Source of the DNA: Candidatus Bathyarchaeota archaeon
Lineage (GTDB): Archaea > Thermoproteota > Bathyarchaeia > Bathyarchaeales > DTEX01
DNA length: 64,000 bases
Reading direction: 5' to 3'
Assembly: GCA_963714275.1 (NCBI GenBank)
Contig: CAVQNT010000006.1
Location: 480,788 to 544,787 of the forward strand
This document shows, in pieces, positions 5,701-41,557 of this stretch. Under the pieces are notes generated by a model, which did not search any database, was not told where the DNA came from, and was given only the letters and a program-made list of their open reading frames with translations. The position numbers and the translations under genes were made by a program. Numbering within the stretch: the first letter of the stretch is position 1; each line of letters starts with the position of its first letter.

Positions 5701-5709
5701 TACGAGTTT

Positions 5710-7668: not shown

Positions 7669-7686
7669 AGCACAATCAATCATTGC

Positions 7687-14051: not shown

Positions 14052-14113
14052 TAATGGAGTCTTCGTTCATTACGTTCCGAATCTAATGGCTGTTTCGGAG
14101 CGAGTGTCTCAAG

Positions 14114-18737: not shown

Positions 18738-18873
18738 GTAGTCAAGGCTTTATTGAAATTATGAACCCTTAGTAAATATCATAAAACTGTAAGCTAAAAC
18801 TTAATAGCCTATGATACTGTTAAATATCATCTAGCTAAGTGTAGATATTGCGTTAGCTAGTATCAGTGAATTC

Positions 18874-20508: not shown

Positions 20509-20517
20509 CCCGTGTCT

Positions 20518-20904: not shown

Positions 20905-20910
20905 TTGACA

Positions 20911-21710: not shown

Positions 21711-21759
21711 ATCTATTTTATATATGAATTATGAATCTAGGATACAGTTTTTAAAAGAC

Positions 21760-22254: not shown

Positions 22255-22260
22255 ACATAA

Positions 22261-22599
22261 CTAGATAACCAGTCCTGAGTATAGTCCTAGGATTACGAGT
22301 ATGTTGTTTATTGTACCTATGTATGATGCAATTGCAAGCCCATTGATACCAAGTGTCCAAGGCTTTTTTCTCGGTAATGTCAATGTGAGTATAGTTATAG
22401 CTGTCCAGAAGATTAATAATGCAAAAACTGGGCTGTATTGCATTTGAGTTTCGTAAAGACCCGTATAAAAGTTCAGACCTATTGTCGTAGTTGTATAGTC
22501 AGATATGATGCCTCCTAGTGCCAGAAAGAAGGGCAGCATCCAAGATTTCAGTATCACGCTTGTTTTCACCAAAAGTCGTTTATAAATATGTATTTTCAA
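22261..22599 (-). CDS. Small membrane protein (DUF5658-like)
   Basis: DYTTTTIGL...LYE motif with three hydrophobic helices. Confidence 0.55.
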   Translation of the reverse strand: MKIHIYKRLLVKTSVILKSWMLPFFLALGGIISDYTTTTIGLNFYTGLYETQMQYSPVFALLIFWTAITILTLTLPRKKPWTLGINGLAIASYIGTINNILVILGLYSGLVI

Positions 22600-23630: not shown

Positions 23631-23948
23631 TCATCGCATTAAATGGCTAGAAGACTCCTTTGCCTTTTCAAGGATGTCTTCAGACGGGTTTTTCAAGGGA
23701 GTAATAGGCTCTAGAGGAGTCTCTATCATAGTGTTTTGTATTGCTAAGGCTTGCCTCGACTCTTTAAGTCCTTCCTTTGCCCTTTCAAAAATATCTTCAG
23801 ACGGTTTTATCAAGAGAGTAATAGGTTCTTGAGGAGTTTCTATCATAATGTTTTGTGTTGCCAAGGCTTGCTTAGATTCTTTAAGTCCTTTCAGATAGAG
23901 TCTTGCTCCAAGTTCTATTTCATCAATTTCTTCTCTTTTGTTGAACAT
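23631..23948 (-). CDS. Small protein with two tandem 39-aa repeats
   Basis: KGLKESKQALATQNIMIETPQEPITLLIKPSEDIFERAK / EGLKESRQALAIQNTMIETPLEPITPLKNPSEDILEKAK. GAGGT-type RBS upstream. Confidence 0.65.
   Translation of the reverse strand: MFNKREEIDEIELGARLYLKGLKESKQALATQNIMIETPQEPITLLIKPSEDIFERAKEGLKESRQALAIQNTMIETPLEPITPLKNPSEDILEKAKESSSHLMR
23656..23889. repeat. Two imperfect tandem 117-bp repeats
   Basis: Units 23656-23772 and 23773-23889 aligned by eye. Confidence 0.9.
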
Positions 23949-24924: not shown

Positions 24925-24940
24925 CTAAGCCTTAAACCAT
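24925..24940. repeat. att core copy 3 (16 bp, CTAAGCCTTAAACCAT)
   Basis: Identical to the 3'-terminal 16 nt of endA (41000-41015). Confidence 0.8.
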
Positions 24941-25253
24941 AGTGGCTATGGATCTTAACCTTAAAACCTCAGTTTGGTCAAGACCTCCCTGTTGTAGAGC
25001 GTCTAAAGCAGCATACAGGACCCTGAGAGCTTCCTCAACGCTTGGAAGATCATCTGGAATACTTAATCTCGTTGTAGTAGTCCCGTGAATTCCGTGGGCT
25101 ACTACTTTTAGATCAAGTCTGTCAATTTTCTTCTGTATTGCTTGAGGAGTCTTATTCATCGTTGTAGCTATGAGATTAACAGGCTTCTCTTGTTCACACA
25201 ATTCCCGTAGTTGCTTTTCCTCCTCAGTCTGTCCAAGGCTTACCTTTCAGCAA
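24932..25253 (-). pseudogene. HTH protein (KGKPWT-EEEKQLREL...LPSVEEAL family), truncated at att copy 3
   Basis: Own translation LLKGKPWT then, after a frameshift, EEEKQLRELCEQ...DDLPSVEEALRVLYAAL...EVLRLRSIATMV*. The stop codon lies inside the att core. Confidence 0.55.
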
Positions 25254-25258
25254 ATCAA

Positions 25259-25468
25259 TCACCTTTTCAGTTTGTCCTTGAAATACCATTCAACCGCAAG
25301 TAAGACCAAAGGCACAAGGACTTTGCCGCTTTCCGCATCTCCCCTGATGAGAATGATAACAAGCCCAAGGACGAGAATTAAAGCGATTAAGAAACGGTAG
25401 TCAGCCATCCCGACTTTGATGCCAAGATTCTTAATTGTTATCCGTGGCTCTTTTCGGGGCTCAGGCAT
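25259..25468 (-). CDS. Small two-TM membrane protein
   Basis: 69 aa. Its ATG overlaps the upstream stop, with an AGGAG RBS. Confidence 0.6.
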   Translation of the reverse strand: MPEPRKEPRITIKNLGIKVGMADYRFLIALILVLGLVIILIRGDAESGKVLVPLVLLAVEWYFKDKLKR

Positions 25469-25720
25469 TAAAGGTTCTCCTCTTAATTATGCGCCTACGA
25501 CCAGAAGTAAAGCTCAACAATAGAAGCTCGGCGACGTCAGGCGGAATCTCAGTTTTGTGGATAACCGTTACGCCGTCAAGGAAGCTACAGGGATGCAAGT
25601 GTAATCGACTTCGTAAAAGTCGTTGTTAAGTTTGAAACTATTTTGGGCGAGAACAATATGTCTCCGTTTCTGTCCAAGGACTCTCAGGTATATCCCCCAA
25701 GCGCGCGCTATGAAAAAACG
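25463..25720 (-). pseudogene. 5'-truncated, frameshifted hypothetical gene
   Basis: Own translation AWGIYLRVLGQKRRHIVLAQNSFKLNNDFYEVDYTCIP...VTVIHKTEIPPDVAELLLLSFTSGRRRIIKRRTFNA*. No start codon before att copy 2. Confidence 0.5.
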
Positions 25721-25752
25721 AATACTAGACTCTCAGAAAATCCGTTATTTTA

Positions 25753-25774
25753 CCCTAAGCCTTAAACCATTTAT
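25753..25774. repeat. att core copy 2 (22 bp, CCCTAAGCCTTAAACCATTTAT)
   Basis: Exact direct repeat of 40998-41019. Confidence 0.92.
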
Positions 25775-26076
25775 TATGGACATACTGTTTGAGGTATTGT
25801 ATTTCTCTTTATTTATCTTAAATATTTCCTACTCTTTATTTATATTGAGGTGAGAAACTGTTGGAAAAAAGATTAGAATCTCTAATAATTGATACTTACG
25901 ATACAGTTATGAGAATAGAAAAAAACTTAAGGAAATTGAGGTTAAACTTAACTGAATAGAAAGTAAAACAAAAATGATTTAGATTAACTCTATGAAGATT
26001 TTATTATATGTATGACTTTGAAACTTCCCTAAGATAATCAATGTATAAGGGACTTAATTCAAAGCAAACATATGGT

Positions 26077-26571
26077 TCAAAGATCATGTGATTCATATTC
26101 AACCAGAAGCATTTTAGAATAGACAGATTCAATCATATCTGAAGGGATATGTTCCAAAATTTTTAAATTATGAGTCTTTGGAACATTGATTATTTCTAAA
26201 AGTCGTCTGAGTTCTCTCTTATCATTTTCCTTTAATCCATTAATAAGGTTCGCATATGTTAGAACTTCACTTAATAATCCCAATTCCACGTGTGATGGAG
26301 CCCATGTAATAAGATATCGCTCGTTTTTAATAATATCTGGAATTTCATTTTGTGCTTTTTCCTTAATTAAATATGAAATGAAGTCTCTTCGTTCACGAAA
26401 AGTTTTAAAGGTTGTGTCAAAAACCTTGATTGTGTGTGTTCGGAGAAGTTCGTCTTTAATTTTGCCGATTTCCAATCTAAGATTGGGCTTGGAAAAATCA
26501 TCAAGCAAATAAAATATGACTAAAAAAGTTTTGGTATTTTCGTGCCAATTCCAACGAACATATATAGGCAA
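26077..26571 (-). CDS. Hypothetical protein
   Basis: 164-aa ORF directly downstream of the HEPN-like gene, with an RBS-like GGTG. Confidence 0.6.
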   Translation of the reverse strand: MPIYVRWNWHENTKTFLVIFYLLDDFSKPNLRLEIGKIKDELLRTHTIKVFDTTFKTFRERRDFISYLIKEKAQNEIPDIIKNERYLITWAPSHVELGLLSEVLTYANLINGLKENDKRELRRLLEIINVPKTHNLKILEHIPSDMIESVYSKMLLVEYESHDL

Positions 26572-26579
26572 TTCAACAC

Positions 26580-27450
26580 CTAACCGTTTGACTGTAATAT
26601 CTTGGTTAGTTCTTCAAGACTGTTTGTGCACAGATTTAAAATTTTAAGCCAACCTTCATTCCAATTTGTTAATGGATATCTATCAATACCCAAATTTCTT
26701 AAAACCATTAGAATCTCGGATGAAGTACAATGAACAGGATACATCTTGTTCCTAAGTGTTATCAAATTTCTTAAATTCGAGGTAGCATGGCGAGGAAGAT
26801 TATTATAATTTTCCTTTAGAATATGCTCGAGTATGTTTATCGAACCCTGTAATGTTTTACGCTTTTCTGGATCTTTTATTATGTCTTTTCAGCTCATTCT
26901 CATTAATTCTATCAAAGACACCTGCTAAGGCTTGTATCTTATAAGAAAAATTCTCACAATCTGTACAAGGCTTTGTGAAATCAACAACAGCAAGCATGTC
27001 ATCTAGAACAGGCTTGAAAAAGTTTCTACCAAACTTGTCTTTAAAATTGGTATCAAAATAGTTCCTATTCTCAACAAATAATTGAATTGGTGGCATGACA
27101 AGTGAGGTTCCATAAAGTTCTTTCATTTCTTCCATAACTTTTTCATCAAGTAGAGGAATTAAGTCTGTTTTATTTTGTGATGTATTGAACTCACAGGAAT
27201 CGCAGTTCTTTGACAAATTTAAGTATTTTAAGACTTGACCATAAGTCTGATAAGGACCCACTTTTTCTATCTTCTCGGATCTCTTACAGAAGGCATACCA
27301 TGCTATTTCTCCAGTTTTGTAATGCTTACCAGACATTACAAAGCATCTTTTACATCGTGGAATTGTCTCGTCTGTATAAACGTGCATACCATTAAAGTAT
27401 TTACCCGTATCTCTAACTGATTTGGGAATGCTCATATTCACTTTTACCAA
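26580..27450 (-). CDS. Zn-binding + HEPN-like protein, frameshift near 26885
   Basis: N-terminal CKRC...CDSC. After the shift: QGSINILEHILKE...NLRNLITLRNKMYPVH (R-N-X5-H). Confidence 0.55.
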
Positions 27451-27677
27451 AAAATCTCCCTCGTTGTAGATTGTATATTCTCATTATTAAAAATTATTGT
27501 ATAACTTTTGAAAAATTACTAACTTTTCGCTCCCGCATTAATACTTGTGTTTTCAGGGTTATTTTTGTTGTTTCTAATACAAAATGACCCACAAAACATA
27601 TATGGGACATACCCCCTCTTAACGGGGTTTTTACCCCATGAAAACACCGAAAATATGGTCATGGAGGTTTGATAAAA

Positions 27678-29176
27678 ATGCTTACTGGACAACATGGAAA
27701 TCCGTTTGGAACAGACATAAAGAATGTCAGAATCTTCTTTAGAGACAACAAACCGCATTCACTAAGAGAATTAAACCACTTGCCTAATGCTCATCCCTAT
27801 ATTCGCAAACTGTTTCACCAGAGAAATTGCTTAGAACAAGAGATTTACTAAATTACGATTACATTGAGAAACATGGTAAGAAATCAAAATGGTGTCGTAT
27901 CAGAGGTTACATGTACATTAGGAAAAAAAGTCCAAAATTGTCTGAGAACAACACATTACAATGGGAGTTCAAATATACAGAAAGCCTTACAATGAAAGCA
28001 AACTCAGAAAAGGTAACGCTACAGTTCATAACATATGAAGAAAGTAAAAAAATGCAGACAGACAACTACAAACAAGTCATATCACAAAATGAAATACTGG
28101 AATATTTCAAACAACGAGGCATAGGTGCAACATTGTCGATTATATCAACCGATTTGAATGTAGACCCAAAATTAGTGAAAACACATGTTTACAAAATGGT
28201 CAGAAATGGAAAACTAACAAAGAAAGGAAAATGGAATCAATCATTTGGTCGAGAAACAATATTTAGAGGCAAATTACACGGATACGTCTATGGATTAACA
28301 CCTGAACAATGCGACCTTTTCATTAAATCTGGAGAGGTTTTAAGTCCTGAGACCAATGCCATACTAAAAGAGGTAATTAAAAACTCAAACGAACACAGAG
28401 TTACAGCAACACATCTCTTCGAACATCCGCCATACAATTATGACCCAGCAGGTGTTAAATATGATGCTGAAGTTCTAACAAATACCTTCCCAAACATTGT
28501 AAAAATTGCAGTAGCAGGATATGTATTAATCTATGATAAAGACAAACTCACAGAAGAAGATGTTGAAAAAGAAAAAACCTATTGGACAAACCAAGCAAGT
28601 AAGGACAAATCGCTGGGACATACTATTGGAGAAACACATGAAAAAGTTGTGCAGATATGCTTAGACCAAATGGGTAAAGACGCAGATATTAAGTGGCTAT
28701 TTCAATCTGTTATTCGTAGTAAAAAAATTAGTTATCAAATACGCCTCAGTAACGGTCGTGAAATAGACAGAATACTGCAAGTAAATATCGAACCATTTGG
28801 AATTAAGCATTACTATCCAATAGAAGCCAAGTATCAAAGGACAGATGTAATGATTGCAGATGTATTTCAATTTTACGATACACTTTGCAATTCATACGAA
28901 TACGGTTGTTCTATCAAATACAATGGACAAGATGTAAAAACATTGAAGTTCAATGTGACACCTATATTTATCGCTCCAAAAATAACTAAAGACGCAAGGA
29001 ATTGGGCATTATCACATGGTATGATGGTAATTCCAACATGGGTAATGACACAATATTATCGGAAAAAACACAACCTAAAAACTATCGTAATAAAGGATCT
29101 TTCAACTGAATTTCTTAACCGAACAAACAAGAAGCAAACAATTGATGAATTTCTAAAGGAAAAAATAGGCAGGTGA
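27678..29176 (+). CDS. wHTH + C-terminal PD-(D/E)XK (Mrr-like) nuclease protein, frameshift near 27825
   Basis: wHTH ILEYFKQRGIGATLSIISTDLNVDPKLVKTHVYKMVRNGKL. Nuclease GETHEK...EIDRIL...IEAKY...PIFIAPKITKDARNWA. Confidence 0.7.
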
Positions 29177-29183
29177 ACCAATA

Positions 29184-29585
29184 ATGGTCATACGCAGGGC
29201 AACCATCACCAATGTGCCTGCGTTGACCAAGATACATCGTGAAGTGTTTAGCGGAAGATGGAATTTATCAGAACAAGATATGACATGGCTTGTAAAACAT
29301 TGTCTAACGTATTGGATTAAGGACATTGGTTACATATCTGTTTGTTCAACCAACGGTTATCAAAGAATCGAGTCTCTTGTAGTTATACCCAAATATCAAA
29401 GAAAGGGCTACGGAACACGTTTAGTACGACATGCTCTAATGAAAAGTAAGTGAAGAACAACAGTTATGTGCAGCACAAGAAAAGTGAAGTTCTACGAGAA
29501 ATTCGGTTTTAGAAAAACCAGAGTGTATAAACATCACGATTGTTGGAATGGACAAACTGCGATACTCATGGTAAAAGAATTCTGA
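29184..29585 (+). CDS. GNAT acetyltransferase with an in-frame TGA at 29451-29453
   Basis: IRRAT...LVVIPKYQRKGYGTRLV (motif A), then *RTTVMCSTRKVKFYEKFGF (motif B) in the same frame to a TGA near 29585. Confidence 0.75.
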
Positions 29586-29797
29586 GACTAATGGATTAAA
29601 ATTTATAGCCCAACACATCCGCAGCATTACACAAGTTCACCTATAAATCGCCAAGGTTATCCTTCAATGGCTTTAGTGTGTGTGCGGTGGGTTAAAATTT
29701 AATCCCAAACCCAAACCCAAACTGTGGACCGTATGTTCACATAATTTATATGTTGTAGTGATATAATTCAAATATAGTTTATGAAGGGTGAGAGATC

Positions 29798-30109
29798 ATG
29801 TCTTCTTGCGAAAACATATTAGCGAGCGAGAAAAATCGAGGTGGATTTACTCTCTCAGTAGTCGCAGAGTTCAATGACTATGGTCCTGTTAAGTATACTA
29901 TTCGTATTGAAAAACCGAATGGGGAATGTGCGGACTTTGTTAGTAGCTTGGATGGATTCAGGAAATTTGGAGAGTTGTTATTAGATTTGCATTCGTTTAC
30001 AGAAGAAAAACTCTATGCTACAGACAAAGAAAAACTGAAAGAAATCTTGACTGCTGAAAACATCAAGACTTATGTTACTTTCAAGAAAGTAGGGACATTT
30101 AAGAAGTAA
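29798..30109 (+). CDS. Hypothetical protein
   Basis: 103-aa ORF with a GGTGA RBS and an upstream TTTATA box. Confidence 0.6.
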   Translation: MSSCENILASEKNRGGFTLSVVAEFNDYGPVKYTIRIEKPNGECADFVSSLDGFRKFGELLLDLHSFTEEKLYATDKEKLKEILTAENIKTYVTFKKVGTFKK

Positions 30110-30331
30110 TTCAAGCTAGCGTTGCACTGAGCAATAAGCTTAGCATTAGACATCAGTCAACTCTCTTTCAACGTAAAAAAAATTTGGTTGGTTGGTTGGA
30201 TCAAAATTTAACCGTAACACAGAGGTGTTGATTTTAACCCATTTCTGTGTTGAGGGTTCTGATGGATTTGTTATTTTATGACAAGAACCTTACAACATTA
30301 ATTTTAGTTACAAAAAACATGAAACAAGATT

Positions 30332-31424
30332 ATGCCAACACCAAAAGAAATCCTACATGAATTTTACCTATTACTTAACCAATATGTAATTCTGGGAAGT
30401 TCCTATATCAAATGTAGCGTGATTGGTTTTTTCCACATTAATATTTTCCCGTAATTTGCTGTTTTCTACAAGAAACCTTATTAAAACCAAGTCATAGTGT
30501 GCACTCTTTGTTTGTTTAAACATTTTAGAAGAAAATCTAAACATGATGCAAGTTGCTTGTTACAAAATCCGTAACAATATTGTAGAATATTGTGGAATAA
30601 CAACAAGTGGAAGAATCCACATAATTTCTGGTTCGTTTTGTAACATTTTTTACATTGAATCCAATGTGTTATTATGGAAAACATTAATTACGTATGTGAA
30701 TTTGGTGTTTTAGTTTTTCAGACCATCTATATGTGTTTACTCTTGTAATAGTGGTTTACCCACACTCACAACCCATTTTTAAAAAACGTATTGTATTTTT
30801 ATGTAAAATCCTTTGGATGTTAGGCACCACTTTTGAAACATACAATGAAAACAACAAGATTCTCCCAATCAAACCACAAAAAGGTGGATTTACTGTATTG
30901 TCGGACAGTTAGTAACACAAAACCCAAAGAAAATGGGTTTTCAATGTCCGTTTCCAATACCTTTTACTAAACCCTCTTGGTTTTTTAGTTACAAAGACCG
31001 AACTTGTTGTATTTTTTATCCACACAATTAGTTACAAAACAATGTCTTTTAGGTTTTTAGTGAGTGAGATTCAAACGTACAGACAATGAAATATTTTGAG
31101 GATGTAAAGGAGACAGAGAAGGCAACGAGGCTTATTGAAACTGAAAATTCAAAATCGAAGGGCAAGGTTGAAAGCATGGGTCTCGAACAAGCCGAGTTCC
31201 AAAAGAAGATGAATACGCTCGAGTCACATCAGAGGACTGTTGACCACGTTTTGGGGTTGCTAGACCTTAAGGAAGAGGATGCTAAAGTCATCAGTGAAAT
31301 GATTATGGACTATCGGGAGAGGAAGAGACTAAAAGTGAGGTTGAAATATTGGAGGCTAACCAAAAAAGTAGAGATGAGATACTGGAAGAGCTTAGGAAAG
31401 AAAAAAAGGTTAGTCTATTTCTAA
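30332..31424 (+). pseudogene. Possible heavily decayed tyrosine integrase with an intact C-terminal coiled-coil tail
   Basis: Ordered faint motifs VIGFFHINIFP, LEENLNMMQVA..IRN...GITTSGRI (RD...GxR-like), VRFQYL (RFHxL-like), YRQ-MKYF, then ORF 31086..31424. By-eye similarity only. Confidence 0.35.
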
Positions 31425-31437
31425 TCTAATCAAAAAA

Positions 31438-33222
31438 TTAATCGTGAAATCTGATAGAAACTAATACTTTTTTAATAGATTCAGGGGTTCTGCTCTTTTC
31501 ACCAATATTCTTAGCGATAGAATAGCAAAAAACATTAAAGCCCATTACAATACCTTTCTCCACAAGTATTTTTTGATAAAATTTCCCCAGAATTGTTTTA
31601 CCATTAAATTTTGTAAATGCCATCTTTGATGATACCATGTTCTTTAATTCTTCTATTATTTTTTGAATCTTTTCTAAAATTTTCTTATTTTCATCAGGGT
31701 CCGTGAAGTCACTATTTAATTTCTTTATTGTATCATCTCTTTCAATGACTAACTCGTTCAGATTTCTTCCTTTAAAGTTGAATTTAAAAGGTGGAATTAG
31801 TGTCGCTAATCTCTTATCAATTTCATCCTGCAAACTTTCTTCGCATATAGTGAACATTTCCTTCTCAACATCTTCTGGACAAGATATTCCTGTTTTTTCT
31901 TTGTATGGCTCTAGCACTTCAAATATCGAAACTGGATTTATTAGTGCGTTTTCAATTGTACAGAATTCCCATGTAAATATTGAGGGAGAAGGTTCTCTAA
32001 AAAAGAAATCAGCATCTACGACTGCGTAAGCAGGAAAACCAATTAGCTTGTCCGTAATGATTTGATTTAGTATCATTGTAGTCTTTCTTGACTTCTCCTT
32101 TACCGCCCATTGGTATGAATATAAATTGTTTGGCCTCGGAGCAAAGTAATTCTAATATTCTCTGATCACTTGGGCTAGTCTTTATGTCTTGAGGACTCTT
32201 TCCTTCTATAAACACTATAGGTCGTCCTAGTGTAAGAATGGCAATGTCTCCGCACACATTTCTGAGAAGGTCAAGTTTTTCTTGGCTTGAAACAACTCTA
32301 CGTCAGGCTGGTTCTCGTTTCCTGCTCTACTTTTTTCTACGAGCACGAAAGTCTCTTCAGAAGATGCTTCATTAATTATGACCGGAGAGTGTGTTGCGAT
32401 TATAAACTGGACATTATCCTGATTTGCTCTTTCTCTCATATATTCAATCATTCTCTTTTGAAGTACAGAATGTATATGCAAATCTGGTTCATCAATTACC
32501 ATTATCGTGTCTGGTGTTACATTCAAATCTGGCGGTTTACCCTTTTTCTATTCTTCGTAGAAATGCATTAATTTCCCTCTCGATTAAAGGCATAAACAAC
32601 GCAATGATCTCTTTTTCTCCCAGACTTAAGGTCATCTATGTCGATAGGTTCATTTGACCCCCCAATATTCAAAAGACATGTTACATTACCCCGATTCTTT
32701 TAATCAATACCTACAAACTTCAAATGAGGAAGAAGTAAATCCAGAAGATCCTTAAGTGGTTTATAAACATCAGGTGCATGTCCTTCAGGATACTTTAAAT
32801 CGTTTTTGTCGATTTCAGACACGATCGCAGTCAGACGTCTAATTTCTATCTGAGCAAGAGTATACTTAATGAATCCTAAAGATTCATCAGCACTATCTGC
32901 TCTTCTAGACCGATCTGATAATATTGGCATTCCTTCAATATTGGGTATGGAATCCGCTTCTAATATACTTGAATATTCCAATTCTTGCGTCCATAACGTT
33001 GTTGTTCTAATAGTTCTTCTCCGCCAAGTGCGATGCGGAGCTGACGTAAAGAATTTTACCGGAACCTTTAACCTTATCTCCTGATAACTTCCTTAGTTCA
33101 TATAGTAAGGTAGACTTTCCTACGCCATTAGGACCAGCAATAATCATTAATTTTGGAACTGACTCACAGAATACTTTTTGAATGATTTTTACATCTGTTA
33201 CTTTAAATGATTGTATTGGCAT
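31438..33222 (-). CDS. OLD-family ATP-dependent nuclease (ABC ATPase + TOPRIM), several frameshifts
   Basis: Walker A IIAGPNGVGKST, signature DDLSLGEKE, Walker B IDEPDLHIH, H-loop IIATHSP. TOPRIM VFIEGK...IPMGGK...VVDAD. Confidence 0.8.
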
Positions 33223-33492
33223 GATAGCTCCTCCTATTTTTCCTTGTATGATTCATCGTTTCTTTCGCTCATCTCTATTTACTGATATATCTTTAATAAA
33301 CATCTTTTTCTATTTAACATACATAAACAGTGACTTAAAAATATGATGAAAAATATATATCAATCGATCGAACGAACCATGCCTGAGCTCAAGTTATACA
33401 CAGAAAAGAAGAACTGCAACATATCTCACAGAGAGACATATCTATCAAAAGACAATATATGGCAAGTAGAGATATTATTGTGGGGATAGTAA

Positions 33493-33975
33493 TTGGATAA
33501 AGAAAAAATTTCAATCTTATTCAAAAGTTTAAATGAAAATGAGAGAAAGCCTCTTGAGAAAATATTGACCATAAAAGAAATAGAACTTTGGAATGAAATA
33601 CAAAATGAATGGGTTGAAAAACTAAAGTTCTTTGTGAGTATTGATTCTGTTAGAGAAAAACTTGGTTTGAAACATGATAAAAACAAAATAAAAGAATTCT
33701 ATACTAAAGAAGACATCATTTGGTTAATTCATAAATATTGGAAAAAACCCAAAAATTATCTCCAAGAAAGACTAACTTTAGCACGTGATGCCCAACTTTG
33801 GCTTCTAAATATATATTCAGCCATCTTAACTGTTGGGTTACTAGGTACATGGCTTCTTTTTCTATCATATTGCTTCCAATCACAAGATATTGTACTTTTT
33901 CTTATTATCTTAATTCCAGGAATTATATCCATGAAAATTAATCGTATAAGAAGGTGGATCAGCATTGTTTATTAG
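33493..33975 (+). CDS. Hypothetical protein with two C-terminal TM helices
   Basis: 160-aa ORF with a hydrophobic C-terminus. Confidence 0.5.
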   Translation: MDKEKISILFKSLNENERKPLEKILTIKEIELWNEIQNEWVEKLKFFVSIDSVREKLGLKHDKNKIKEFYTKEDIIWLIHKYWKKPKNYLQERLTLARDAQLWLLNIYSAILTVGLLGTWLLFLSYCFQSQDIVLFLIILIPGIISMKINRIRRWISIVY

Positions 33976-34148
33976 TGATAAATTCATTCGAGGGAATCTA
34001 AACCACTATGATATCGAAAGCTATGTGATTGCTAAGATTCTTGATAAAAAAGAAAAGCCTGAAAAGAAAAATGGACAATAGTTTACGCGCGCGCTAAAAG
34101 TGATAAGATTGAGGAATTAGAACTCACCTAGTAATTGGTGAAGCAGTC

Positions 34149-35099
34149 TTGAAAAGGGTTCTATACAATTCATCTGAAATTAGAAAGGAAATAATAAGAA
34201 TATTCAAATCTTATAATGAGCGTCGTGTCGCGATTTCTGCTTTTATTGGAGAAGGTGCTGATGCATACTTACCCACACCACAAGGTTTACAACTTATTTG
34301 CTGGCCAAAAGCGGGAAGTACTAATCCGGATATGTTAAGAGAACTCATTAAACGCGGGGTTGATGTTTTCTTTGCTGATGACCTGCATATGAAACTATAT
34401 TGGAGCGAAAGTCAAGGAGCAGTTTTAACTTCTGCAAATCTATCAACCAACGCTCTTGGTTCGGGAAATCAGAAGGAGATAGGTATTCTAGTATCATCCA
34501 AAGATATTGACATTGACCATTTAATAGCCTCAATACAAACGCGGCACGCATCTAAAAACGAGCTTCAGGAATTAGACCGTTTATACAAATCCTATGTCGT
34601 TAGAAATCCGCACGAGTTCAAATATAGGCATAGAGCAATGTCTTTTGCAGAATGGTACGAATCGCCTTTTCGAAAAGAATGGAAACTGGGCTGGTATGGT
34701 GAATATGGACCAATATCATCTATTGCTAAGGAAAGAGCAATGAGAGAATATGGAGTTAATGAACCTAAGGATTGGCTAAACGCCTGCGAAGGAGAATTTA
34801 AAGAAGGTGATTGGATTCTTTCATTCAAGTTAATACGGCTTCCAAGGCAACTTCAATGGATATCGGTGGATGATGTCGTTAGTGTCCCCAAGTCTGATAA
34901 GGCATACGAAAAAGAGTACCCTTACCAAGTTGTGCAGACTCATCCAAATAATTGTTATCCACAACCTCCATTTAGAATTAATAATAAGAAATTTATGAAA
35001 GCCTTCTCGAATGCAGTCCAGAAGTTCGGAGTAGATAAAGTAAAGAAAGTAATCACTCCCCCTAATGATTTAATTAAGTTTATTTTAACTAACATGTAG
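34149..35099 (+). CDS. PLD/HKD-superfamily nuclease (NgoFVII/Nuc-like)
   Basis: LHMKLYW...AVLTSANLSTNALG..NQKEIG (HxK...SANLS...N.E). Confidence 0.8.
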   Translation: MKRVLYNSSEIRKEIIRIFKSYNERRVAISAFIGEGADAYLPTPQGLQLICWPKAGSTNPDMLRELIKRGVDVFFADDLHMKLYWSESQGAVLTSANLSTNALGSGNQKEIGILVSSKDIDIDHLIASIQTRHASKNELQELDRLYKSYVVRNPHEFKYRHRAMSFAEWYESPFRKEWKLGWYGEYGPISSIAKERAMREYGVNEPKDWLNACEGEFKEGDWILSFKLIRLPRQLQWISVDDVVSVPKSDKAYEKEYPYQVVQTHPNNCYPQPPFRINNKKFMKAFSNAVQKFGVDKVKKVITPPNDLIKFILTNM

Positions 35100-35334
35100 C
35101 CATATCAAGATTAATCACTTTTTCAACAGAAAACCAGCTAACCAGGATATTTTTGTCCTTTTAGAAGCTTCCATTGACTTTTATAATCGTCCAAAGGAAA
35201 GACTTCGTGTCTTGGATGAGGGAAGCCACGTATTGAACTTTTCTTGATTCGACCTCACTCTTTAGACCTTATTATTGCTCTCTCATTTTCTCTTTTAATA
35301 TAATCAGCAACTTTATTGGATGATATTAGCTGAG

Positions 35335-35739
35335 CTAACTTATGGTATTGCTGGAAATATGTCCGAGTTGTTGTCTCTTAAGTTTAAAATAGGCGATACT
35401 TTCTGCCGTTGTCTCCATTATTCTACCTCCACTTGTTTCACTGCTACCTTTGGTGTTCTTTTTTGTTTTATTCCGAGCTTCTTTCATCTTAGCGGCTAAT
35501 AGTTGCATTAACCGAGTTGTGTCTTTGCTTTGGTTTGTTTGTTTCATGACATACATGTTTGAAGCATAGGCAACCCAGAAAATAGGTTCTTCTTCTTTGG
35601 TTACAACAAAAATGCTTTCTGGATTGAATCTTTTTGGTATGTCTGATCTCATTTCTTTCGGTATTCTAGAGGATGTTTGTATTTCTGCATCTAAACCATT
35701 GGCATCGAAGAAATCTTCTAAGACTTCTGTTATTTTCAT
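35335..35739 (-). CDS. Hypothetical protein (may extend to about 35257 after a frameshift)
   Basis: Overlaps the stop of the upstream Zn-finger gene (ATGA coupling). Confidence 0.55.
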   Translation of the reverse strand: MKITEVLEDFFDANGLDAEIQTSSRIPKEMRSDIPKRFNPESIFVVTKEEEPIFWVAYASNMYVMKQTNQSKDTTRLMQLLAAKMKEARNKTKKNTKGSSETSGGRIMETTAESIAYFKLKRQQLGHISSNTIS

Positions 35740-35924
35740 TTTTTCAACCTCCTATTATCTTCATCATATTCTTCTACGAAAGTTCCACAACTTGGGCAGA
35801 CGAAGCCTCTCTTTCCTTCCCTAACGCACCACTTTCTGTAATAATTAAGTTCTTTAACCGAAGTCTCGAACCAGCACTTACTACACTTTAAACTTTTATC
35901 CACCACTCGTTTTGTGTGCGCCAT
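35736..35924 (-). CDS. Small zinc-finger protein
   Basis: CSKC...CPSCG. GGAGGAG RBS. Confidence 0.7.
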   Translation of the reverse strand: MAHTKRVVDKSLKCSKCWFETSVKELNYYRKWCVREGKRGFVCPSCGTFVEEYDEDNRRLKK

Positions 35925-35944
35925 GGCGATTCTCCTCCTCCTTT

Positions 35945-36667
35945 TTAATTTTTGATGTAAATCCCATTACCCTTCACGTCAAAGACATTTAGTCCAAGAA
36001 ATGCTGAATATTGTGGTGTTACGAGAATTACCTTACGAGCAAACTTTCTGGACTCATAAACAAAACTCAAGAACGATTGAATGTTTTGGTATCGGTGCGC
36101 TTCTTCTACAATGATAATCCAATTTTTAAGATATTTGCGTTTGTCATTCAATCGTTCAAATATCCACTCGATGTCTCTTTCAGCCTTACGCACTTCTTTA
36201 TCTGGTCTGAACCGCACACGGATCAAATCACCTTTGAATTGAAAATCATCAGATACATGTCTCAAAATGCCATACTCATGTGCAGTATCGACCACATAAA
36301 TATTATATCGCATTACCTTTTGCTTTTTGATCCAATTTAAGATCTTGTTTTTAACGAAATATGTCTTCCCACTTAGCGGTTTCCCTGTAATAACTATTGG
36401 TTCAGTCCCACGCATTGCTGTGGTGACGTCAACAGGATCACCATATTTTTGGCTTACAAGGTTTGTTTCATGTGCGATTACAGAACCTAAACTTGGAAGA
36501 TTCATTGTTTTCGTTAATTCTCTTAGTTTTGTGTGAATATCAAGTGGCACTTTCACCGTCTTTACGGGCTGATCACGGTAAAGTTCCCACAAAGGAGCAA
36601 CTTCTTGCACTTTATTGTTCTCTGTTTTTATCACAGAACACTCACCTTCTAATAGAACAACAGGCAA
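35945..36667 (-). CDS. RHH-like domain fused to a FtsK/HerA-superfamily ATPase
   Basis: KTVKVPLDIHTKLRELTKTMN (RHH-like). Walker A ITGKPLSGKT, VVDTAHEY, Walker B IIVEEAH, ESRK arginine finger, ILVTPQ. Confidence 0.75.
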   Translation of the reverse strand: MPVVLLEGECSVIKTENNKVQEVAPLWELYRDQPVKTVKVPLDIHTKLRELTKTMNLPSLGSVIAHETNLVSQKYGDPVDVTTAMRGTEPIVITGKPLSGKTYFVKNKILNWIKKQKVMRYNIYVVDTAHEYGILRHVSDDFQFKGDLIRVRFRPDKEVRKAERDIEWIFERLNDKRKYLKNWIIIVEEAHRYQNIQSFLSFVYESRKFARKVILVTPQYSAFLGLNVFDVKGNGIYIKN

Positions 36668-36769
36668 AAATCAGAATAATTTACAACTTGTTTCTTCTAC
36701 CAAACTGCAACAATCTTTTGCCTCTTCTCGGCATCTTTTTGCGTTTCTTTTTCTGCTTTCTTACCTTTG

Positions 36770-37033
36770 TCATCGCCACTGCTCCATTACTAGCTTTTCT
36801 GTTTCTTTGTACTCTTTTCTGAATTTAACAAGTTTTACCTTTGTCTTATCCAGTGACAGTAAAATGTAACCACGAGAAAATAACAGATCTACAAATTCTT
36901 GATATTCTTTATGTTCGCTTATGTCAATCCAACCGTCAAATGATGGCGAGTTCCTTGATAGTTTTTTGTCAATACATAGCAACATGACATAAAATTCTCC
37001 CACTCCCATTTTTTTTCCCAGCTTTTTTACCAT
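36770..37033 (-). CDS. Hypothetical protein
   Basis: 87-aa ORF co-oriented with the ATPase cluster. Confidence 0.5.
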   Translation of the reverse strand: MVKKLGKKMGVGEFYVMLLCIDKKLSRNSPSFDGWIDISEHKEYQEFVDLLFSRGYILLSLDKTKVKLVKFRKEYKETEKLVMEQWR

Positions 37034-37211
37034 TACAATTCGATCATGTGGATGTTTTTAACAAGTGGTCTTTTTGTGTTGTTTGGTATAGGTTTTTTAC
37101 TAAACGTTTATTAAATCAATTTTTTGTCACATAGGATTCGTGTTAGACAAAATTTGTCTAATAAGGTGACATACGATTCCTATTGTGACAAAACGACAAT
37201 AATTTTGGTTG

Positions 37212-37436
37212 TTAAAATGGTTGCAAGTTTTGTAGGACATACAACACCATTTCTGACAGCCCATCAAGTGTGTAAGTGAAAAGTATGCCACAAATTAAGA
37301 GTAAGATTCCACTAAAATAGAGATCATAATCAAAAGTTACCACCAGCAAAGCCATTAAAATCCCAAGTGCTCCGAGAATGATGCAAATGTGCATCATTGT
37401 AGAGAAATCTCTGGCATCATTTATTGTGAACATCAT
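37212..37436 (-). CDS. Small membrane protein
   Basis: 74 aa with two hydrophobic helices. Purine-rich RBS. Confidence 0.5.
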   Translation of the reverse strand: MMFTINDARDFSTMMHICIILGALGILMALLVVTFDYDLYFSGILLLICGILFTYTLDGLSEMVLYVLQNLQPF

Positions 37437-37781
37437 TCCCTTTTCTTCTTAAAACTAAACTGGCTCCTTTCGTTTTTCATCTTGATACCAAAACAGCATT
37501 CCCTCTACATGCTGGAAAACATGATTTAGAAATTTATTTTTATTATGTAACAAAAATACGATAGACAACTTTACCATATAAAAGGTTTGTGGTATGTACT
37601 TGTATTGAAAAATACACTGCCTTCCGTTGTGATCAGTTAAGATAATGGTGTAAAAGTCAATATTGGTTACAACTTGTTATTTTTTTTTACAACAACCTAT
37701 TATCAAACAGCTTTTTACTCTTGTGCTTTCTCAAATATTCTAATTCTATCACCATTGGCATGTATTCGAATTTTGTTTTGA

Positions 37782-38217
37782 TCACGTAATTTGCAAACCA
37801 AATCCCAAAACTACGACAAATTTTTTCAAATCGTCTTCCCAGATGACATGCAATTCGTATCCACGTTTCTTGAAATATTGGATACGTGCTTTTTCTGTTA
37901 ATTTTCTACAATGAATCTTGCCACTCATGTCGTAGATAATGAGATTTAATATCATCCCACCACTGAGAAACAGGTGTTCTCTCGTAATTTGCATATGGGT
38001 TGCATTCCTCTAGAAATGCATCTACCACATATCCATAGACTTTTCTTTTGAGAAAAGCTATAATTGCATCTCTTTTCTCCGAAGAAAGAAACCCACTATA
38101 CCAATCGAAATTCAAACTATAGAAAGCTCTAAGAATTTTCACTCCCTCTTTGTTCCCTGCTTCATCTTCTAACGCTATTAGAGTCTTTCCAGTACTTAAT
38201 TTCTTCCCACTCTTCAA
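37782..38217 (-). CDS. Hypothetical protein, with a Vsr/DUF559-like endonuclease tail in an overlapping frame
   Basis: ORF 37906..38217, plus EKARIQYFKKRGYELHVIWEDDL in ORF 37782..37994. Confidence 0.4.
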
Positions 38218-38255
38218 GACCTTTCAGTTCTTCTTTAGTTGGCTTCATTGCATCT

Positions 38256-38507
38256 TCATATTCCATTGCCATTTTTTGTAAGCTTTTCTTGTAGCTTTAT
38301 TGTTGGGTCGTAAAAAGTGTAGTTACAGTGTTTGCAATGATAACGCTGAATTTTATGTGGGCGTCGTTTTACTTTGTGAAACCCTGTTTTTATGATATTA
38401 CGTGAACTGCACTTGGGACATATATGCGACTCTTTGACCATACAACCAACTACACGTTTAACAACACAAAAATGCCCTCTATATATATTTTTGCAAAAAG
38501 ACACCAT
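38256..38507 (-). CDS. IS1 InsA-like zinc-ribbon protein
   Basis: CPKCSSRNIIKTG...QRYHCKHCNYTF. Confidence 0.7.
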   Translation of the reverse strand: MVSFCKNIYRGHFCVVKRVVGCMVKESHICPKCSSRNIIKTGFHKVKRRPHKIQRYHCKHCNYTFYDPTIKLQEKLTKNGNGI

Positions 38508-38637
38508 GTTTTGTTTGGTTCAAAACAAACCAGAAATTTCAAAAAAGATACTCTAGAGCCAAAAACGTGTAGCTGGACGTGTAGTTTTAACAACTACACG
38601 ATTAACGACACAAAAAAATGATGTATCATATCTTAAT

Positions 38638-38985
38638 TCAAAACACTTTTACGCTATCTCCATTAACATGTATCTGACATTTGTGTTGGTCTTTTAGCTG
38701 TAATATCAGGTTCATGACCACTTTATCAGAAGCTTCTAGCCTGTCTGCGATGTCAATAATTGGTATCCAACCCTCTTGTTTCTGATATTTTCTCTTCTTT
38801 TTAAGCGAAGATAACCATGTGTATAGCATCTTAAGTGTTTCCTCTTCATCATCTAAGAATTGGGTTATTGCCTTTTGATCTATTGGTTTATCTTGTTCTA
38901 TTTCTTCAGCGTGTCTTTCAGTTGTTTCTGCATCTGTTGGCTGTGTTTTTTGTGGAAAGAATTTGTCCTTAATCCGTTTAAACAT
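38638..38985 (-). CDS. Hypothetical protein with a C-terminal wHTH-like segment
   Basis: IPIIDIADRLEASDKVVMNLILQLKDQHKCQI. Confidence 0.55.
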   Translation of the reverse strand: MFKRIKDKFFPQKTQPTDAETTERHAEEIEQDKPIDQKAITQFLDDEEETLKMLYTWLSSLKKKRKYQKQEGWIPIIDIADRLEASDKVVMNLILQLKDQHKCQIHVNGDSVKVF

Positions 38986-39075
38986 CTTCCAACCCTTTCT
39001 CGATTTCTTCTTTTATGTTCTCAGGCAACAGCTTAAATATTTGTTCCATATCTGTTGCAAAATCTTCTTCTGACA

Positions 39076-39276
39076 TCATATTTCGCCTCCAATGTACTTT
39101 ATTATGGCTTGACATCTTCCCTTGGCTTCGATTTCCACTATTTCCCATCCACCAGCAATCAATTTCTCAAGTTGCTTGTAGACAGTTTTAAGCGGTCTTC
39201 TATCCAAGTCAAGAATACGCTCCATAAAATGCATCCCCTTTGAAACTTTACGTGTCTGTTGACAACTTCCAAACAC
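39076..39276 (-). CDS. Small hypothetical protein
   Basis: Short ORF in the operon-like minus-strand run. Confidence 0.4.
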   Translation of the reverse strand: MFGSCQQTRKVSKGMHFMERILDLDRRPLKTVYKQLEKLIAGGWEIVEIEAKGRCQAIIKYIGGEI

Positions 39277-39736
39277 TACTACGTTTCATCTTTCCAGCGA
39301 GTACTTTCCAAAAACTTTGAATCCCTATGAAATATGGACTATTGGGTAAATCACCAATAACAAGCACAATGCTTCTTTTACCCAATGTTGCCTTTCCACA
39401 CCGTATGTATGTGTTGTTGACTAAATTAAAAATCGGGATGTCAGAATCTTTGTGTCTTATTAAATTTTTTACATCTAACACATAAATGAAAAATTGCCGA
39501 AGGTTTGAATAATCTTGCGGTTGAGAACCACCATTTGGTGTCATATAAATTACTCGTGGCGGTTTTGGTCCTATTCCAATCCAAACCAATAATGTATTTC
39601 GATTTTTTGATAACCGAAATACGCCACTGCGTGTTGCATCAGGATATAAGTTAAGCAAATCTCTGTTTATTTCTTCTAACGCTTTTTGAATTTCTATCCT
39701 TTTCCTTTCTTTATTACTTAGTTCTGATTCTGACAT
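39248..39736 (-). CDS. Hypothetical protein
   Basis: 162-aa ORF with a GGTG RBS. Confidence 0.6.
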   Translation of the reverse strand: MSESELSNKERKRIEIQKALEEINRDLLNLYPDATRSGVFRLSKNRNTLLVWIGIGPKPPRVIYMTPNGGSQPQDYSNLRQFFIYVLDVKNLIRHKDSDIPIFNLVNNTYIRCGKATLGKRSIVLVIGDLPNSPYFIGIQSFWKVLAGKMKRSSVWKLSTDT

Positions 39737-39753
39737 ACATACACACCATTTAT

Positions 39754-40101
39754 TTATGCTACCTTTTTGTATGTTCGTGGCTGTTTTGGTATCAATTTTA
39801 ATTTGCCACTTGTTCTCATCTTTTTCAATACAAAATTTAGCGTGCCTATGCCATCATTACCATATTTCGTAGTGACAATCTGTTTGATGCTTTCATACGT
39901 AAATTTTTCAGAAAAAACATTGATGATATTCTTGATGCCAGTAATTGATACACTTGGTTGTTCGTAAAATGTTTTGCCACATTTCTGACATTGAAAGCGT
40001 TGTTTCTTATGAAGTTGTGGCTTCATAACTATGCGAAAACCAATCTTAGATGTTTTATCTGAACCGCATGCTGGACATGATACCATTTTACATACACACA
40101 C
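39754..40101 (-). CDS. InsA-like zinc ribbon fused to a wHTH-like domain
   Basis: CPACGSDKTSKIG...QRFQCQKCGKTFY, then FTYESIKQIV...LNFVLKKMRTSGKL. Confidence 0.7.
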   Translation of the reverse strand: MCVCKMVSCPACGSDKTSKIGFRIVMKPQLHKKQRFQCQKCGKTFYEQPSVSITGIKNIINVFSEKFTYESIKQIVTTKYGNDGIGTLNFVLKKMRTSGKLKLIPKQPRTYKKVA

Positions 40102-40997
40102 TATAAGATTACAATAATATTTTTATAATTTGTCGTTTGAAAATTACCCATCTGTTCCAAGACGATGCACAAAACTAAAAAAATTTTAACACGTTTGTGT
40201 TAAATTCGGGTAGCTGTAAACAATTTACAACAATGTCAAAACTGTGCAACCAATTGATCCATGTTAAAAAATAGTGTGTATGTAATTCAATGTCGAAAAT
40301 ATGAATACATGTACCAGAATCCATGCTTCCATAATACAACAGACATACAAGTCCCAATATAACCCAAAAAAGTTTTTAATACAAAACTGTAAATTCACCA
40401 TTAAAACCCTATTGTTTACGATACTCTAACGATTATCGTTATCGTAGATTAGTATAGACAAGTATTATCGTAGATCGTAGATTACTCTATAGATCTGTTC
40501 TTTTTTAGAAAGTCTGAAAACCTTTTTTTAAGGTTTAAACACAATTTAACAATTTGGTCACACACAGAAAAAAGACATGGAAAACACATGTCGAAAAAAA
40601 TCTTAACAACCTATTTTACGTTAAAAAATGTAAATTTTCCATGATTTCTAATTACTTTGTATTAGTGTTTTTTATGTAAATTTCCACATACAACAATTTT
40701 CCAACACCATTGTCTTAAAAAAAACGAAAGTATTAACCAATAAGATATTAAACATTGAGTGTCAGTAAAAAACAACGAGTGAAATTGCATCTGTAAGTAG
40801 TGTAATCTGAACACTCTCTCTGAGTGAAAAATTACCCTGAATATTTAAGATCGAAGGTAAGCTTATAAAACATTTATAAAGAATACAATACCTCATAGAA
40901 AACCAAAATTAACCACATCTGGGCTTTCCAATACAAACCAATAAACCCAAAAACGTGTCCAAAAACCAAAATCCTATCAGAAAACCCCTCGATTTAC

Positions 40998-41019
40998 CCC
41001 TAAGCCTTAAACCATTTAT
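40998..41019. repeat. att core copy 1, overlapping the endA stop codon
   Basis: Reverse complement ATAAATGGTTTAAGGCTTAGGG encodes K-W-F-K-A-stop of endA. Confidence 0.92.
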
Positions 41020-41557
41020 AGATGAAGTATTGAATCTTGTTTTTTTCTAGGTCGGGTACTGCTATTATGAAGCGTTTCCTTACTGTGGTTGCTAGTCTGC
41101 CTGCTTTTACAATTTCAGTTGCTGTGATGATGTCTTTTTGGCTTTTCACCGAAACCATGTAGGGCGCGTGGTCGATGCCTGGTCCCTGCTTGTAAACAGC
41201 GAAGTCGCATCCATACTTAACTCCGGGTGTAACCACTAAACTTTTTTCTCTCAAGTCCCGGTACACCGCATACATAGCGTCGAACGCGTCAAACGTTTTT
41301 TGGGCTCTACCTTTAAGAGTCCGAAGATTTACCCCTTTCTTTTCGGGTCCCTCAACAACGTGGACCAAGCCCTTCTCCGCGAGGTACAACCCCTCCATCA
41401 AGTCGAGAACAAGGGGCACGTCGAACTCTGAGCTTTTAGGCTTAGGAATACCGAGGGGCTTGCCGTAGAATCCGAGTTCAAAAAGATCTGAACCCTTTTT
41501 GGAATCCCAAACAACGAGGAAATTCTCAACAAACTCAGCCTCAGTTTCCTCTGGCAA
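41000..41557 (-). CDS. endA: tRNA-splicing endonuclease (tRNA-intron lyase), catalytic subunit
   Basis: LDLMEGLYL, VYRDLREK, GVKYGCDFAVY, GIDHAPY, GRLATTVRK (Tyr-His-Lys triad). Confidence 0.95.
   Translation of the reverse strand: MPEETEAEFVENFLVVWDSKKGSDLFELGFYGKPLGIPKPKSSEFDVPLVLDLMEGLYLAEKGLVHVVEGPEKKGVNLRTLKGRAQKTFDAFDAMYAVYRDLREKSLVVTPGVKYGCDFAVYKQGPGIDHAPYMVSVKSQKDIITATEIVKAGRLATTVRKRFIIAVPDLEKNKIQYFIYKWFKA

Follow-up and report, generated by a model that had tools for sequence, protein, structure and literature searches.

In a 64,000-nucleotide stretch of the genome of a Candidatus Bathyarchaeota archaeon (assembly GCA_963714275.1; the stretch, which is the end of contig C6 of a 10-contig, 2.64-Mb genome, is hereafter the window, and positions are given in its coordinates), we studied a mobile island, element B (25775-40997), that lies against the 3′ end of endA, a gene for a tRNA-splicing endonuclease subunit. 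The explanation that we favor, and regard as probable, is that 24925-41019 is a tandem array of two insertions at a single 16- to 22-nt site in the endA tail, with element B's own winged-helix/nuclease protein as the integration enzyme. More generally, viruses and islands that carry the gene for this protein appear, from comparison of their sequences, to insert by means of a restriction-enzyme-like protein and not a known integrase.

Repeats and Empty Sites at the endA Tail

The original prediction at this locus was of an integrative element flanked by a perfect 22-bp direct repeat. Exactly two perfect copies of this 22-nt sequence, CCCTAAGCCTTAAACCATTTAT, are indeed present in the window, at 25753-25774 (DR2, + strand; the middle attachment [att] copy and left junction of element B) and at 40998-41019 (DR3, + strand), and no extra copy was found in the window at up to 3 mismatches (0 expected from 100 shuffles). 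The inner 16 nt of the 22-mer, CTAAGCCTTAAACCAT, has a third perfect copy at 24925-24940 (DR1, + strand), the outermost of the series (3 matches versus 0.05 expected). A copy with 1 mismatch elsewhere in the genome, at C2:887454, was attributed to chance; it falls within a gene for a 2-oxoacid oxidoreductase. The right repeat copy was correctly recognized as the last codons and stop of endA: it takes in the final 17 coding bases and the stop codon, plus 2 nt beyond, of an open reading frame (ORF; 41000-41557, − strand) that encodes 185 amino acids (aa), with the Pfam domains tRNA_int_endo_N and tRNA_int_endo and the C terminus ...IYKWFKA*. Since DR3 thus supplies the present stop and last codons, endA stays whole. 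DR2 and DR3 each have on their left an arm of ~30 nt, and the two arms are imperfectly alike (CTCTCAGAAAATCCGTTATTTTA-CC vs. CTATCAGAAAACCCCTCGATTTACCCC); the host flank to the left of DR1 is unrelated to both. DR1 represents the original endA tail, now displaced, and is the left boundary of the inserted DNA as a whole.

We next consider the same site in relatives. An endA orthologue was found in 29 of 31 genomes searched, our own included (matches at E ≤ 1e-60). In the congener G001, endA is followed by 78 nt and then by the homologue of window 24848-23936, and the corresponding distance between DR1 and 24848 in the window is 76 nt. Because the two spacings match, the whole DR1-DR3 stretch (16 kb) is extra, and the true insertion relative to relatives is, as judged from this spacing, 24925-41000, reaching beyond the 25753-41019 first proposed. 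Another relative, G002 (EndA 93% identical), has an unrelated 2.7 kb downstream of endA, with an MFS transporter gene, a 291-aa ORF, and no repeats, while in G003 and G016 endA abuts TrmB-like or S6e genes, which sit at 14-16 kb in the window. Many metagenome-assembled genomes of the order have a contig end 0.2-3 kb downstream of endA (G004, G003, G006, G012, G015, G018, and G026), which may reflect strain-variable DNA there.

An empty site was also found in metagenomic data, for which we used four runs (X1-X4) in the form of assembled contigs, from which rare forms are lost. Run X1, an independent metagenome from freshwater sediment (0.28 of sampled words), has a 747-nt contig in which 25460-25752 is joined directly to 40998-41449. 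The joint from 25752 to 40998 skips exactly 15,245 bp, and the 22 nt fit both sides, with 0 and 2 other letters. Depth in X1 was 0 over 26156-28811 and 30804-40763 and 0.87 over 28812-29475, and an 809-nt contig of the same run crosses DR1 into the start of segment A, the 0.8 kb between DR1 and DR2. These contigs therefore represent a natural strain that carries DR1, segment A, one 22-mer, and endA, without element B. Element B, the 15,245 bp separating DR2 from DR3, was thus gained or lost as a single exact unit at a time when segment A was already in place. Together, the empty-site contig and G001 identify element B (15,245 bp with one repeat copy) as a discrete mobile unit, and we hold it very likely that this unit is a discrete site-specific insertion at the endA tail. 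Both comparisons suggested earlier, for an empty attB and for the region downstream of endA in related genomes, thus turned out in favor of an insertion; the block is not syntenic, and among the 46 other genomes of the family the DNA of element B had 0 matches, bar one of 57 nt at chance level.

Two further points concern base composition and the att core. The low GC content of the 15.3 kb was confirmed (0.30-0.38 over 26-41 kb, against 0.45-0.49 to the right), but the left flank (14-25 kb) is also low at 0.32-0.40, so that AT-richness alone is no marker of the element. A search for the att core in other genomes and viral contigs, as had been proposed, gave 0 exact matches for the 20-nt core in the genome-contig collection and 0 in the viral-contig collection.

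A Provirus Remnant beside the Island

Segment A (24941-25752, − strand) contains a small-terminase-like helix-turn-helix (HTH) ORF (24932-25246), a membrane ORF (25259-25486), and a broken ORF (25461-25732). It has paralogues of 74-79% DNA identity at at least five other places in the genome, including C6:348.5k, C2:283.6k, and C2:333.4k, two of which sit between an HTH_45 gene and a large terminase gene, downstream of HK97-gp10-type tail genes. The homology of segment A to all of these copies ends 13 nt from DR1, and the last ~50 nt before DR2 are absent from the paralogues and resemble the arm to the left of DR3. From these paralogues and their terminase context, segment A is read as the likely rest of an older head-tailed provirus that used the same att site, most of its length having since been deleted. 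An interpretation of segment A as an endA pseudogene was ruled out, as the DR1 region has no similarity to endA itself.

Within 25775-40997, no capsid, terminase, conjugation, or Rep gene was found by Pfam, PHROGs, or NCBIfam. This agrees with what was first noted for the element; however, the 0.8 kb just to its left is a tailed-provirus fragment. Nor did these three collections reveal a tyrosine or serine recombinase among the 34-50 ORFs of element B. A split integrase of the SSV type was rejected as well, the longest frame over three possible circular junctions being 61 or 104 aa with no integrase likeness.

A Protein with Winged-Helix and Predicted Nuclease Domains

The candidate integration gene of element B (27678-29176, + strand) encodes a protein of ~500 aa with two winged-helix domains and a predicted Mrr-like PD-(D/E)XK nuclease domain. 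It is the largest gene of element B. One ORF spans 27827-29176 (449 aa), and the N terminus is encoded upstream in another frame, with one frame shift near 27815-27825 that may be an assembly error. For this ORF we found 11 homologues of 254-518 aa (full-length ones ~495-518 aa), none with Pfam domains, and a wider family of 66 representatives at E ≤ 1e-3 among 1.84 billion proteins. The N-terminal half contains two winged-helix motifs, with weak matches to MarR, TrmB, and IclR. A PDB search with the family profile returned only weak winged-helix (Z-alpha) matches, at E 0.025 or worse, and a PDB sequence search with the 449-aa ORF alone returned no match.

The C-terminal half was compared by hhalign with an alignment of 15 Mrr_cat domains from the genomes of relatives. 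The match scored 93.3%, rising to 95.8% (E 8e-9, 63 columns) when 47 family members were used. Against nine tyrosine integrases of the same genome the C-terminal half scored 0.1%, as did the control of Mrr versus integrase, and neither the window protein nor any of 31 relatives and 12 distant ORFs gave a Pfam match to the tyrosine recombinase family PF00589. Among the 47 members, G268, E272, and D314 are invariant (47/47), with E312 conserved in 45, K335 in 44, and E333 in 41; E272, D314, E333, and K335 are the predicted PD-(D/E)XK catalytic set. In the Atlas, Mrr-type clusters came next after the protein's own 121-member cluster, with a score of 0.87 that serves as a lead only. Three of the 31 scanned relatives (766-808 aa) carry an ATP-dependent DNA ligase domain at the C terminus (1e-27 to 1e-30). 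One of these fused proteins, P0038, shows the KIDG motif, and for another, P0026, no locus was found in the genome-contig or viral-contig collections.

Position of the Gene Family at Attachment Sites

Independent contigs place homologues of the candidate gene beside the endA tail. On the metagenome contig L079, a PhoU-like gene is followed by endA (67.6% identical to that of the window), 137 nt, a 495-aa homologue, and cargo of HerA-like and E1/E2-like genes. On L080, the closest homologue (64%) is preceded, ~190 nt upstream, by a fragment encoding ...KWFKA* and oriented as DR2 is in the window; the promoter-proximal ~100 nt there are homologous to those of the window, element B having an extra 1.85 kb between site and gene. 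The proposal of a family of elements that target endA was therefore upheld to the extent that these two contigs link a homologous gene to the endA tail, but a wide family is spoken against by the 25 relatives, in 0 of which a repeat of the genome's own endA tail was found downstream of endA at up to 1 mismatch (only 14 had at least 5 kb). Elsewhere, the homologue in L082 follows the 3′ end of a ferredoxin-type gene, and in L078 it opens an AT-rich island that also has GNAT, Ssp-like, and the same ATPase genes as in element B. In L077, a threonyl-tRNA-synthetase-like frame, recognized from its motifs (1-360), breaks off just upstream of an N-terminally truncated candidate gene, an arrangement that may be a rearranged or decayed insertion. 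The sister islands L076, L078, and L079 look like carriers of defense systems: L078 has a set of PAPS-reductase, DUF4007, and ATPase genes (13510-16659; Ssp-like phosphorothioation), L079 a HerA-like helicase with ThiF (E1-like) and E2-like genes (4830-8810), and L076 a JAB protease beside the candidate gene.

A clade of viral homologues, 30-33% identical to the window protein, is associated with a different gene tail. In 15 of 23 viral-clade loci the homologue is immediately preceded by a glycosyltransferase gene or the 3′ fragment of one, and six of these 15 have the full SecY...cmk-glycosyltransferase host context. Contigs of this clade also hold a large terminase and homologues of segment A ORFs, and thus belong to the same virus group as segment A. 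No PF00589 match was found in G060, a complete virus genome carrying the gene (36,291 bp, with a terminal repeat of 127 nt and a completeness rating of 100%), and PHROGs identified no integration gene among the 26 ORFs of its locus L060 (1749-23089). The provirus of G059 (~63.8-98.5 kb of contig C5) is collinear with G060 as a circular permutation opened beside the gene, and its two junctions and the attP of G060 show Campbell-pattern arms around the core CATTGCATATG..TTAGCCC.

More distant loci are associated with tRNA genes. In 7 of 14, a tRNA gene (for Met, Gln, Ala, Phe, Ser, Thr, and Cys) lies 35-159 nt upstream, on the same strand, of a 493- to 556-aa ORF, and in L083 a tRNA-Val gene lies 388 nt upstream of the gene, with tail genes behind. 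These distant ORFs (11 and that of L083) have only winged-helix (wHTH) Pfam matches. The 3′ half of the tRNA-Ser gene in G413 recurs as a 53-nt copy (91%) 36.6 kb away on the same strand, and no PF00589 match was found between the two; in G211, no second tRNA-Thr repeat was found, the contig ending 2.3 kb on. G413 also has a 62-nt copy (97%) of the tRNA-Ser 5′ half (C9:140029-140091), 450 nt past the intact gene and away from the element, possibly a scar left by a separate event at this tRNA. When 401 genomes of the class were searched with a profile, 12 gave a match, strong only in the window's own genome.

A Proposed Course of Integration

The comparisons above show two steps. A head-tailed provirus inserted first, and the 0.8 kb of segment A is what is left of it between DR1 and DR2. 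Element B, bounded by the perfect 22-mer, then entered the regenerated site beside endA as one unit, probably in the form of a circle and by Campbell-type site-specific recombination. Its attP would carry a copy of the endA tail and a related arm, so that EndA keeps its C terminus. The enzyme would be element B's own ~500-aa protein (27678-29176), whose family seems to take the position of an integrase, as the first gene beside att and reading inward, in Bathyarchaeia viruses and defense islands, with different clades going with different targets, i.e., endA, a glycosyltransferase gene, and tRNA genes. It is this combination that leads us to the protein: a gene that comes first beside att and reads inward, with targets in tRNA genes or gene tails and with sites that differ by clade, bears the hallmarks of an integrase gene. 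In such a scheme, the protein would recognize a short core common to the element and the host gene tail, and attP and attB would be cut in a sequence-specific manner and rejoined by a ligase, either host-encoded or, in three relatives, fused to the protein. The ligase would be needed because PD-(D/E)XK enzymes hydrolyze DNA, and the three fusions fit this expectation.

How far the role of the protein can be specified differs with the claim. We regard it as probable that the integration module at least depends on this protein as an essential component that determines the site; that it is itself the integrase of element B, of a kind not described before, we put at about an even chance.

Several points weigh against an integrase role. 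PD-(D/E)XK nucleases hydrolyze DNA and have, to our knowledge, no conservative strand-exchange chemistry, and we know of no member that acts as an integrase. The fold assignment is a profile match over 61-63 columns, and Pfam Mrr_cat has no match at E ≤ 0.01 to the window protein, its relatives, or the distant ORFs. Position alone is not proof, because defense genes often sit at prophage ends, and the position itself is not uniform: the window gene lies 1.9 kb from DR2, not adjoining it, and, relative to endA, it is oriented the opposite way from its homologue in L079; in L078 the gene abuts the 5′ side of an operon and not the 3′ end of a host gene, and in L076 it is inside a low-GC block, neither at the edge nor at a host gene 3′ end. 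The absence of such an element from the endA loci of all 25 relatives is a further point on this side, as is the circular junction from 41019 to 25775, which was detected in none of the X1-X4 contigs, where rare forms are dropped. Finally, the literature covered, including parts of PMC10848311, PMC6563490, and PMC4158269, whose supplements may name the family otherwise, does not describe it as an integrase.

Alternative Explanations

The main rival is mobilization in trans by a resident tyrosine integrase, which we regard as possible but rather unlikely. Element B would then be a real integrative island that is not self-mobile, having kept only its att sites, as a cis-mobilizable element does, and been inserted by the tyrosine integrase of a resident or visiting provirus, and the winged-helix/nuclease protein would be an Mrr-like accessory, that is, the product of a restriction, defense, or regulatory gene that tends to sit at element ends. 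Candidate helpers exist, as the genome has several tailed proviruses and 20 PF00589 matches (14 above the Pfam cut-off), none of which is inside the island; however, no arm or core similarity was found near the resident integrase genes, bar a match to 13 nt of the core at chance level. This match, 45 nt upstream of the tyrosine integrase ORF C2:557839-559056, was dropped since it has no partner repeat within 70 kb. The domain order of the protein is that of Mrr-type restriction enzymes, the other cargo of element B is defense-like, and three tandem att copies are what accretion at a shared site would be expected to give. Yet the candidate gene is the only gene that element B has in common with the viruses that integrate beside it, and it is att-proximal across three kinds of target at 30-100% protein identity, a tighter association than expected for an accessory gene. 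The lack of a PF00589 match in the complete virus G060 and in the repeat-flanked element of G413 likewise speaks against a tyrosine integrase.

Trans-mobilization might also be read from the several genes of element B that appear broken. The host ELP3-like (44202-45789) and FGGY-kinase (glycerol-kinase-like; 45882-47424) genes are, however, each split into two ORFs as well, and comparison of the window with X1 contigs reveals single-base indels at 24942, 25228, 25585, and 25724. Assembly indel errors are therefore likely, and the broken frames should not be taken for decay; apparent pseudogenes in this genome need caution in general.

It is improbable that no site-specific recombination took place, the repeats having arisen by duplication or micro-homology-mediated insertion and the X1 form being a deletion by homologous recombination. 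The exact X1 joint is what loss of the DNA between two 22-nt direct repeats would produce, and the region downstream of endA is generally variable, as in G002 with its unrelated, repeat-free 2.7 kb. Three core copies, two different inserts, and related arms at two of the copies point instead to repeated use of the site; moreover, the independent contigs L079 and L080 tie the same gene family to the same endA tail, and the sister elements have classical attL/attR/attP arm relations and tRNA-half repeats. More improbable still is an assembly artefact, i.e., a chimera in which an unrelated contig was attached at a short word common to both: the assembly has probable indel errors, and the runs, which hold contigs only, gave none across element B's own two junctions, but a chimera would need both ends joined at the same 22-mer in the same orientation, the combination of endA tail, related gene, and AT-rich cargo recurs in the independent assemblies L079 and L080, and a 3,160-nt contig of run X2 that is ~93% like 35907-37569 shows that B-like DNA exists elsewhere.

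Cargo of the Island and Other Features of the Window

Apart from the candidate integration gene, element B carries a cargo that is mostly of predicted defense type, chiefly a PARIS-like gene and a PLD-like nuclease. No DNA or protein paralogues of element B were found in its own genome, bar a generic ATPase match. Directly behind the candidate gene is a short GNAT acetyltransferase ORF (29184-29453, + strand; Pfam), which also follows it in L078. The PARIS-like gene (31438-33222, − strand), a putative fused AriAB (ATPase plus Toprim) recognized by the PADLOC AriAB model, is in several ORF pieces: 33007-33222, 32227-32526, and 31438-32076 match model positions 1-46, 330-393, and 477-690 of 694, respectively. 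The pieces thus match the fused model in order, with a broken frame whose breaks are possibly assembly errors. The PLD-like (DrmC-like) nuclease candidate (34149-35099, + strand) has weak matches to PLDc_2 (1.4e-4, below the cut-off) and DrmC (7.8e-5). A 240-aa P-loop ATPase (35945-36667, − strand), with weak matches to ATPase_2 and, in a PDB sequence search, STIV B204 (E 0.33), has five homologues and is common to the islands L076 and L078 at 38-40% identity. An operon of small ORFs (38256-40101, − strand) includes two IS1/IS1595-type zinc-ribbon proteins (38256-38507 and 39754-40101; NCBIfam NF050000, 2e-7 and 8e-7).

Within the island, 29690-29722 and 30183-30213 are inverted copies of an AT-rich palindrome (GGTTAAAATTTAA..) with CCCAAA/GGTTGG low-complexity arms, and flank a 471-nt piece with a 103-aa ORF (29798-30109). 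The 32-nt palindrome unit recurs at C6:195833, C2:357415, C7:147604, and C5:168163, and contigs of X2 and X4 join 29716/29717 to 30188, with a depth there of up to 170. The pair looks like a palindrome-cored intergenic repeat carrying a small gene. The left flank contains a second variable region: where the window has a 6.3-kb block (15944-22262) encoding a histidine kinase, a 7TM-kinase N-domain ORF, a GH3-like protein, and a response regulator, G002 and G001 have ~1.1-1.4 kb. A 117-nt tandem duplication (23656-23889; 86% alike) lies inside ORF 23631-23948, beside an HTH_45 gene.

Discussion

Enzymes known to insert DNA into chromosomes are tyrosine and serine recombinases, DDE/DEDD transposases, HUH enzymes, and Cas1. 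The archaeal viruses and islands considered here integrate with textbook site specificity (gene-tail and tRNA targets, attL/attR arms, and empty sites), and in these elements the known integrase classes are absent as tested by PF00589 and by general Pfam, PHROGs, and NCBIfam scans. The position of the integrase is held by a protein with what is predicted to be a restriction-enzyme-type active site. If this protein is indeed the integrase, it would represent a categorically new enzymatic route to site-specific integration, by cutting and ligating, and possibly a new tool for targeted DNA insertion. It would also account for the many Bathyarchaeia proviruses in which an integrase seems to be missing, and such elements would escape automated provirus finders keyed on known integrases. 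Even if the protein is not an integrase, the locus offers a clean, naturally polymorphic case of the stepwise build-up of an island at an essential tRNA-processing gene.

The closest functional counterparts of the candidate family are the archaeal tyrosine integrases of the SSV, pNOB8, and SNJ2 types, which are encoded by the first gene beside attP, use tRNA or gene-tail targets, and give Campbell-type arms. The candidate family has the same genomic role and position. The protein differs from them in having no PF00589 match, an hhalign score of 0.1%, and no gene split across the junction, and its conserved residues are E, D, and ExK, in contrast to the R-K-H-R-H/W-Y catalytic set of tyrosine integrases. 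With Mrr-type (type IV) restriction endonucleases, on the other hand, it shares the order of a winged-helix N-domain followed by an Mrr_cat PD-(D/E)XK domain, the profile match spanning the (E/Q)xK strand and the helix-strand unit that follows. The candidate differs from Mrr enzymes in having about double their length, two winged helices, and an additional middle region, and it falls below Pfam Mrr_cat detection; its family is also consistently att-adjacent in mobile elements and, in 3 of 31 relatives, fused to a ligase. PD-(D/E)XK nucleases do take part in DNA mobility, as exemplified by TnsA of Tn7 and the Rpn "recombination-promoting" nucleases. These either work together with a DDE transposase or differ from one in their action, and are not known to carry out Campbell-type site-specific integration.

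The arrangement of the array also has counterparts. In streptococci, cis-mobilizable elements accrete beside integrative and conjugative elements (ICEs) at one att site. The three att copies at endA likewise bound an old remnant and a newer element, although, unlike in ICE accretion, the older partner is a decayed tailed provirus and conjugation genes are lacking. In archaea, tandem proviruses and casposons at one site are reported in the portion covered of a Thaumarchaeota survey (PMC6563490).

Viruses of Bathyarchaeia have been catalogued, and in the part of that catalogue covered, of the integrases mentioned, one is called an integrase and the other a tyrosine recombinase (PMC10848311). The covered portion of the Thaumarchaeota survey attributes att repeats to tyrosine recombinases and target-site duplications to Cas1 elements (PMC6563490); neither a tyrosine recombinase nor Cas1 was found in element B. 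EndA does not appear in the portion of the survey's target list that was covered, but the survey places 14 of 68 elements in the 3′-distal region of protein-coding genes, so that integration into the tail of a protein gene is known in archaea and the kind of target used here is not new (PMC6563490). The sections covered further describe short att repeats, a new gene tail that keeps the target intact, empty-site comparison, and tandem re-use of a site (PMC6563490), and with its short att repeats, supplied tail, empty-site evidence, and tandem re-use, the endA island shares all of these.

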